Part shown: positions 5,942-6,628 of the stretch, in pieces
Layout of the letters: each line of letters opens with the position of its first letter
Numbering within the stretch: position 1 is the stretch's first letter
Source of the DNA: a virus
Taxonomy: Duplodnaviria; Heunggongvirae; Uroviricota; Caudoviricetes
DNA length: 16,684 nt
Reading direction: 5' to 3' (one strand)
IMG/VR virus record: IMGVR_UViG_2526164618_000010
Program-made: the position numbers and the translations under genes
Notes under the pieces: model-generated
What the model was told of the DNA's origin: nothing
The model's database searches: none
Seen by the model: only the letters and a program-made list of their open reading frames with translations

Positions 5942-6628
5942 TCACTCCTTCTCTTCTTTACCGTAGTGGAGTTGACCAATTTTGATAAGAGGGCGTCCCT
6001 GAGATTTGCGGTGTAGATTGGTATCGCGCAGAGAATACACACAGCCACAATATTCCTGCTGATAGAATTTTTCGCGCTTGCTGATTTCAATCATACGGGA
6101 CGAGCCGCCCTGCTTGCGCCAGTTATAATCCCAGTACACCATGCCCGGATAATGCGCGACGGCTCGCCGCCCACAGTCGTTAACCTGCTGCATATTTTTC
6201 CAGCGTGAAATGCCCAGTGAACTGCTGATCACACTGAAACCATTTTCAGCGGCGTACAGCGCTGTCCGCTCAAAACGCATGTCAAAACACATGGTGCAAC
6301 GGATCCCTCGTTCGGGCTCCCATTCCATTCCTTTGGCTCGTTCAAACCAGTTGTCTGTGTCGTAATCAGCATCAATAAACGGCACGCCGTGTTGTTCAGC
6401 AAAGCGAATATTCTCATCCTTACGAATTAAATACTCTTTCTGAGGATGAATGTTCGGGTTGTAGAAAAAGATGGTGTAGTCGATTTCCGAGGCCTGAAGC
6501 GCCTCCATCACCTCACCGGAACATGGAGCACAGCAAGAGTGCAGTAGTAGTTTGTTTGCCCCGTTTGGGAGCTCCAATTTGGGCCGTTTGAAATCAGCAA
6601 CTGTCATAAATATGTTTATTGAGGTCAT
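5942..6628 (-). CDS. queH: QueH-like (DUF208) epoxyqueuosine reductase homolog, 228 aa
   Basis: N-terminal [11 protein letters not shown] motif, then FFYNPNIHP and [11 protein letters not shown], and a C-terminal EYCGCVYS cysteine cluster. This is the Cys pattern and order recalled for the QueH family. The start could instead be the internal Met at residue 8. Confidence 0.8.

Follow-up and report, generated by a model that had tools for sequence, protein, structure and literature searches.

A minus-strand ORF of 228 codons (5942..6628) in a 16,684-nucleotide stretch of viral DNA (Caudoviricetes; IMG/VR record IMGVR_UViG_2526164618_000010; this whole stretch is called the window below) raises the question of why a lambdoid prophage would carry a QueH-type epoxyqueuosine reductase in a species that has another enzyme, QueG, for the same predicted reaction. 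An initial annotation, made from the sequence alone, had described the ORF as a QueH (DUF208) homologue, and the frame is present exactly as claimed, including the quoted Cys motifs (EYCGCVYS among them). The ORF is far beyond what chance would produce.

QueG is a cobalamin/[4Fe-4S] epoxyqueuosine (oQ) reductase that was identified in E. coli (PMC4646009; PMC5175355), and queG knock-outs in the E. coli single-gene knock-out collection accumulate oQ. QueH is a cobalamin-independent, non-orthologous replacement of QueG (PMC5372724; PMC5615194), and the two enzymes have been found together in one genome in streptococci (PMC12632869).

A profile search against QueH/DUF208, proposed with the initial annotation as a check, returned a full-length match to PF02677 QueH, which scores 220.2 bits (cut-off 23.5; E 2.6e-65) and spans positions 1-174 of the 175-position profile. 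QueH was the only domain detected with Pfam, and no B12-binding domain was found. No NCBIfam model matched the protein, so the QueH name assigned by PGAP must rest on other evidence. The PHROGs assignment is phrog_3217, a family of 'unknown function'. The phrog_3217 profile begins at Met41 of the 228-codon ORF (6506-6508), preceded by GGTGAGGTG. Many phage annotations thus appear to be N-terminally truncated, losing the first CCAPC motif, and these truncated starts are the likely reason that phage copies go unrecognised as QueH and are listed under 'unknown function' in PHROGs.

Among solved structures, the protein is related only to those of T. maritima QueH (7lc5, 7lc7, 9deu and two point mutants); the match spans residues 27-203 (E 3e-22), with ~31-33% identity. 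The published T. maritima structure reportedly contains a [4Fe-4S] cluster and an adjacent iron. We aligned the window protein with 21 close homologues and T. maritima QueH. The expected order of the Cys signature (CCxP, CxxC, CxC) was borne out, with the pairs C25/C26, C104/C107 and C187/C189 (221-aa numbering) invariant throughout the alignment and corresponding to C9/C10, C87/C90 and C169/C171 of the characterised T. maritima enzyme. All columns that are invariant in 63 diverse representatives (near-full-length members of 50%-identity clusters) are matched, namely C25, C26, P28, N52, E99, R103, Q184, C187, G188, C189 and S192, and the near-invariant C104, C107 and K137 (62 of 63 representatives) are also kept. 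At the position of T. maritima Asp13 the window protein has Cys29 (CCAPC versus CCAPD). A motif count taken from the 150 best 50%-identity cluster representatives found 114 that bear the motif, with CCAPC in 110 and CCAPD in 3. Mutants of T. maritima QueH in the PDB include C9S and D13N (9dco), showing that these sites were targeted by depositors.

Structure prediction, also suggested at the outset, recovered the QueH fold. In a comparison of the AF2 model (pLDDT 80.2, pTM 0.81) with the PDB, the first five places go to the QueH structures (TM 0.78-0.82 when normalised to target length). The best of them, 7lc7 and 7lc5, reach TM 0.81-0.82 by target but 0.67 by query, with 180 columns superposed at an rmsd of 3.0-3.2. 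LarE and argininosuccinate synthetase follow at TM <0.5 and belong to the same superfold (adenine-nucleotide-alpha-hydrolase-like). As judged from its sequence and predicted structure, the ORF is a bona fide QueH.

The start codon of queH is most likely the second ATG (6607), which would give a protein of 221 aa instead of 228, because three observations point to it: PGAP calls the equivalent ATG, and 221 aa, in a 99.8%-identical E. coli locus (L001); in one allele (L009) a stop codon interrupts the first seven codons of the 228-codon frame; and the N-termini of homologues align to M8 of that frame. The queH CDS was accordingly placed at 5942..6607 on the minus strand (221 aa plus stop), as a gene for epoxyqueuosine reductase QueH with Pfam (PF02677), PDB and RefSeq matches. 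The seven in-frame codons upstream (6608..6628, minus strand), which start at the ATG chosen in the initial annotation (6628), are probably 5' leader and not coding.

Alignment of six queH loci revealed an upstream segment of ~50 nt (6629..6679, minus strand) that is shared between different prophage backbones. Similarity sets in ~50 nt ahead of the ATG, and all six upstream regions contain an unchanged GATGCTACAC. Only these ~50 nt 5' of the queH ORF, and nothing 3' of its stop, are shared between backbones, and this restriction to leader and gene indicates that the mobile unit is a compact cassette. The leader contains a conserved TGcTACAC(T), the final T of which is missing from one allele. 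We consider this sequence a candidate extended -10 element that might act as a promoter. A consensus promoter scan called neither it nor any other promoter upstream of queH, and the region upstream of the likely start contains no canonical sigma-70 promoter and no Shine-Dalgarno sequence. A consensus terminator scan found no intrinsic terminator around queH. The 147-nt upstream spacer folds to a GC hairpin without a U tract (z -1.8, not better than shuffles).

The host element is an IS-riddled, replication-defective Rac/Qin-like lambdoid prophage. The window is 99.3% collinear with L001, an intact prophage of E. coli FDAARGOS_944 that is inserted beside ybhA/modC. The immunity/early region (9235..10352), identified from the Pfam YdaT_toxin match and the collinear L001 annotation, comprises a plus-strand repressor-like HTH gene (9945-10352) and minus-strand genes for a Cro-like protein (9641-9868) and YdaT (9235-9657). 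The minus-strand order continues with a YdaU-like replication gene (8380..9157), a DnaC-like ydaV (7627..8373), a DUF977 gene (7190..7612), a zinc-ribbon-like ORF (6776..7189), queH and hok/mok with the sok RNA, so that queH has the same orientation as the rightward early operon. The placement of queH between prophage replication genes and hok, as originally described, was thus confirmed, with YdaT, YdaU-like, YdaV and DUF977 on one side and hok/sok on the other.

Several of these neighbours merit description. The YdaU-like gene is a pseudogene with an 11-bp deletion at 8562/8563 that shifts the frame relative to L001 and leaves overlapping ORFs. The ydaV gene is likewise a pseudogene, split into two ORFs by a nonsense change at 8034, with an IstB_IS21 match on its C-terminal half; the change is a single-base difference from the intact 747-bp gene of L001. 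Both replication genes, which are whole in L001, are thus disrupted in the window; queH and hok are intact. The DUF977 gene, the usual upstream neighbour of queH, encodes a YdaW/Ren-like protein (Pfam E 1e-33; Ren-like in PHROGs), and the small hypothetical phage protein encoded next to queH matches phrog_1621 (E 9.5e-56), its resemblance to the Pfam Zn_Ribbon_TF profile being weak and below the cut-off.

On the other side of queH, the minus-strand hok/mok toxin frames (5559..5771; Pfam HOK_GEF E 1e-22; MokW-like in PHROGs; hokD in L001) consist of hok itself at 5559-5714 (51 aa according to PGAP in the relative) and a longer ORF that represents a mok-type extension. The sok antitoxin RNA and hok mRNA 5' regulatory region was matched on the same strand at 5709..5884 (Rfam RF01794, 117 bits against a cut-off of 59, E 1.4e-26). 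Both the Hok peptide and the sok RNA of a type I hok/sok toxin-antitoxin system are thus present, and the promoter scan called a promoter-like site at 5920-5891, just past the queH stop. Profile, sequence, structure model and context agree on the core of the initial annotation, a QueH/DUF208 homologue that is lambdoid-prophage cargo beside hok.

Just downstream of hok the prophage is cut by a minus-strand IS3-family element (4109..5312; Pfam rve and HTH_Tnp_1), and collinearity with L001 ends at window position 5345. Past hok, L001 continues with DUF1367, DUF1364 and DUF1133 genes, four tRNA genes, lysis genes and head genes. The tRNA genes (Gly, Thr, Arg and Ile; L001 9644-9954) are flanked by the antiterminator region on one side and the lysis genes on the other, and none of them specifies a queuosine-bearing tRNA (Asp, Asn, His or Tyr), so they have no direct link to queH. 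IS sequences are dense in the window (721-3569, 3604-3870, 4109-5312, 11157-12430, 14295-15424 and 16437-16661) and include an IS66-family element with TnpB and a DDE transposase as well as several IS3-family elements or fragments; the prophage has been cut and inverted. Compared with L001, a lysis-gene fragment (3881-4100) and a RecE/exoVIII fragment (15449-16093) lie in inverted orientation. A Rha/Ash-family ORF (12825-13781) overlaps Rfam matches to the isrK and C4 antisense RNAs (12984-13060 and 13085-13172) and, by its sequence matches, may represent a putative P1/P7-type ant/immunity module on the prophage.

We found queH (≥90% DNA identity) in 995 of 5426 complete E. coli genomes (~18%), where it is essentially always chromosomal and always annotated as QueH. 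Because queG is present in all 5426 of these genomes, queH is always a second, non-orthologous enzyme in E. coli. All sampled E. coli contexts were lambdoid prophages (Rac-like, Qin-like and an O157:H7 prophage), and the gene also occurs, as 'hypothetical', in phage HannyBb. The initial annotation had left it undecided whether queH is a known conserved prophage moron; its presence in 995 complete E. coli genomes and a RefSeq Shigella entry identify it as a known, conserved prophage gene.

Relatives of queH were found on 191 viral contigs in IMG/VR. Among the best 80 of these 191, queH has a DUF977 gene no more than 1.5 kb upstream in 69 of the 73 loci that could be evaluated, and hok is found at up to the same distance downstream in 57 of 71. 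The zinc-ribbon-like ORF is found upstream of queH in only 14 of 73. Matches to 'phage' database entries from outside E. coli were mostly unannotated fragments or very large records suspected to be host DNA and were not counted as phage carriage.

The position of queH corresponds to a variable slot that holds DUF7167 genes, a methyltransferase or an NgoMIV restriction-modification (RM) system in related prophages. In an O157:H7 prophage (L007 3806-5816), queH is followed by genes for a DNA cytosine methyltransferase and an NgoMIV-family restriction endonuclease, not by hok, which marks the slot downstream of queH as a cargo hot spot. The Qin prophage of the E. coli B-derived strain B-LamR has DUF977-queH upstream of hokD (L008 5990-6655). 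K-12 Qin (L172 9120-11851) has relBE-ydfV-flxA upstream of hokD, with neither queH nor a DUF977 gene annotated.

Where did the prophage gene come from? The closest proteins outside E. coli and Shigella are those of Scandinavium (92% identity) and of Kluyvera and Enterobacter (88-90%), followed by QueH of Erwinia, Providencia, Proteus, Photorhabdus and Serratia (78-86%), and identity within the subfamily is still 75-80% in alpha- and betaproteobacteria. Providencia queH sits among core genes (tmcA...purC-bamC-dapA), and non-phage neighbours were also found for Photorhabdus queH and on a contig with a 90%-identical copy. Since its close relatives include chromosomal, non-phage QueH of other Enterobacterales, prophage queH is probably captured host cargo, the probable source being an Enterobacteriaceae chromosome. 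These comparisons qualify the earlier statement that enterobacteria normally use QueG, which holds for E. coli, where queG is core (5426/5426), but not in general, as QueH is native to many Enterobacterales (78-92% identity).

Several lines of evidence bear on whether the gene is maintained. Among E. coli prophage alleles of queH, dN/dS is 0.04-0.13 (dS 0.15-0.45; the estimate is restricted to these alleles, with Providencia L002 left out for its indel-shifted register and Photorhabdus for saturated dS), which shows that prophage-borne QueH evolves under purifying selection. An intact copy was found in each of the 80 viral loci examined, the best of the 191 IMG/VR contigs. Across the 228-codon ORF, the window allele has two differences from its closest intact relative, both non-synonymous and none synonymous. 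One of them, Gly41->Glu (DNA position 6486), is the only substitution inside the 221-aa protein. Gly occupies position 41 in 19 of the 21 close homologues and in 77 of the best 80 viral loci (of 191), and Glu41 is a private Shigella-type substitution. In the 63 diverse QueH proteins the same position is more permissive (G 32, D 9, N 8, K 4, E 3), and the occurrence of Glu in 3 of the 63 suggests that Gly41->Glu is probably tolerated. RefSeq lists an identical 221-aa protein as 'MULTISPECIES: epoxyqueuosine reductase QueH [Shigella]', which occurs on at least 1000 contigs, most of them labelled S. flexneri; on this evidence the E41 allele is stably kept in Shigella, and the window itself is almost certainly of Shigella origin.

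Taken together, we think it quite probable that the gene encodes a functional, cobalamin-independent QueH, captured as a cassette in Rac/Qin-like prophages, with completion of Q-tRNA without cobalamin as its most plausible benefit. We infer from its conservation that the enzyme would reduce oQ to queuosine (Q) at position 34 of tRNA-Asp, tRNA-Asn, tRNA-His and tRNA-Tyr, and would do so without cobalamin. The cargo would be a cassette of ~50 nt of leader and the 666-bp coding sequence, taken from an Enterobacteriaceae chromosome. In E. coli and Shigella it would now be spread by Rac/Qin-like lambdoid prophages, which carry it in the variable slot that separates the DUF977 gene from hok/Q. Gene order suggests that queH would be transcribed with the early-right operon after induction, and lysogens might also express it from a weak promoter of its own, for which the TGcTACAC(T) of the leader is a candidate.

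Lysogens, or the phage during growth, could in this way complete Q-tRNA without cobalamin. E. coli lacks de novo synthesis of B12. Because of this, and because every E. coli has the B12-dependent QueG, B12-free completion of Q is the most plausible advantage of a second enzyme. Given the universality of QueG, QueH may be redundant whenever B12 is available. The prophage surrounding the window copy is defective, so explanations that invoke a benefit to the phage are inapplicable to that copy. A broader idea, which we put forward tentatively and would sooner doubt than endorse, is that 'epitranscriptomic lysogenic conversion' is brought about by lambdoid prophages: QueH would make Q completion cobalamin-independent in E. 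coli and Shigella, hosts that are unable to make B12 and otherwise depend on QueG for this step, and would thereby alter the decoding of NAU and NAC codons in ~18% of E. coli strains, among them laboratory strains of the E. coli B lineage, and in Shigella.

Other readings of the locus must be weighed against this one. The window copy could be a neutral or decaying passenger that is intact by chance, is either unexpressed or disabled by G41E, and leaves tRNA unaffected since QueG suffices. We consider this unlikely. Such a passenger might well sit in a defective prophage (with its ydaV nonsense change, 11-bp deletion in the ydaU-like gene and IS insertions), differ from the closest intact relative over the 228-codon ORF solely by non-synonymous changes, lack a clear promoter and occur in a species in which queG is universal. 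However, alleles of the gene show strong purifying selection (dN/dS 0.04-0.13), none of the best 80 of the 191 viral loci has a broken copy, and the exact E41 allele is carried on at least 1000 contigs. Moreover, Glu is naturally tolerated at position 41 in the family, and every invariant residue is kept. Far less probable is a neofunctionalised enzyme that has the QueH fold and acts on another substrate (a different epoxide or nucleoside). The protein is 78-92% identical to QueH of other Enterobacterales, whose contexts, where checked, are chromosomal and non-phage; its family-invariant positions are unchanged; and dN/dS gives no sign of relaxed or positive selection. Against these observations stand the redundancy with QueG in every E. 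coli genome and a phage context that might favour a new function.

The initial annotation had also raised a 7-deazaguanine modification or anti-restriction strategy, in which QueH would serve phage DNA modification, anti-restriction or a defence system instead of tRNA. DNA modification with preQ0-derived bases is known from phages (PMC6884629), and queH lies beside DNA methyltransferase or RM cargo in some prophages. The expected partners are missing, however: no DpdA/Tgt-like transglycosylase and no FolE, QueD, QueE or QueC is annotated in L001 or in the stretch of HannyBb that was covered (77 of 90 features), and DpdA/Tgt and preQ0-pathway genes are likewise absent from the window ORFs. Furthermore, the four described 7-deazaguanine DNA modifications are derivatives of the preQ0 pathway, not of oQ, and the modifying viruses analysed contained no QueA, QueG or QueH (PMC6884629). 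PADLOC returned no defence-system match for QueH or its neighbours, other than two weak HTH-type matches on DUF977, and the adjoining methylase and RM genes are alternative cargo of a variable slot, not constant partners. We therefore regard this role as the least probable of the readings considered and as barely credible.

A functional, captured QueH thus remains the preferred reading. The identification of QueH is correct but is already contained in public annotation (PGAP, RefSeq). The searchable literature yielded no study or mention of QueH as lambdoid-prophage cargo or of a Shigella-borne QueH, and, given the lack of QueA, QueG and QueH in the viruses analysed for DNA modification (PMC6884629), a phage-borne enzyme of late Q synthesis seems not to have been discussed. 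If prophage QueH is active, carrier strains would bring their Q-tRNA to full maturation even when vitamin B12 is lacking. This would cover about one-fifth of E. coli genomes, the E. coli B-derived strain that was checked and S. flexneri, and would exclude K-12-type strains, as K-12 has no queH at the Qin slot and E. coli queG knock-outs accumulate oQ. The consequence would be an overlooked strain difference in the translation apparatus, with a potential Q/oQ contrast between the E. coli B lineage and K-12. As judged from sequence, this is an ordinary, well-annotated gene at an interesting place, and the B12-independence hypothesised for it is of modest interest.

A comparison with known systems helps to place the locus. 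Relative to T. maritima QueH, the window protein shares the full-length domain, the three Cys pairs, the other invariant residues and a predicted fold with a TM of ~0.8, whereas it differs in having Cys at the position of T. maritima Asp13, which is the majority state among its relatives, and in a ~20-residue C-terminal tail that is conserved in proteobacterial homologues. QueH proteins of other Enterobacterales belong to the same subfamily and match it in length and motifs, with very high identity; theirs are encoded in non-phage contexts, where checked, whereas the window copy occupies a prophage slot and exists alongside QueG.

QueG itself catalyses the reaction that is predicted for the window protein, the conversion of oQ34-tRNA to Q34-tRNA (PMC5372724). 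The two enzymes are nevertheless unrelated in fold and cofactor, as QueG needs B12 (PMC4646009) and QueH is cobalamin-independent (PMC5615194), and they differ in distribution in E. coli, queG being core (5426/5426) and queH accessory (995/5426). Like other lambdoid cargo genes of the nin-equivalent region, such as relBE in K-12 Qin or the methyltransferase and RM genes elsewhere, queH occupies the variable slot between DUF977 and hok/Q. Unlike them, it encodes a housekeeping-type tRNA-modification enzyme and not a toxin, defence or virulence function, which, if the enzyme is active, would make it an unusual phage cargo.
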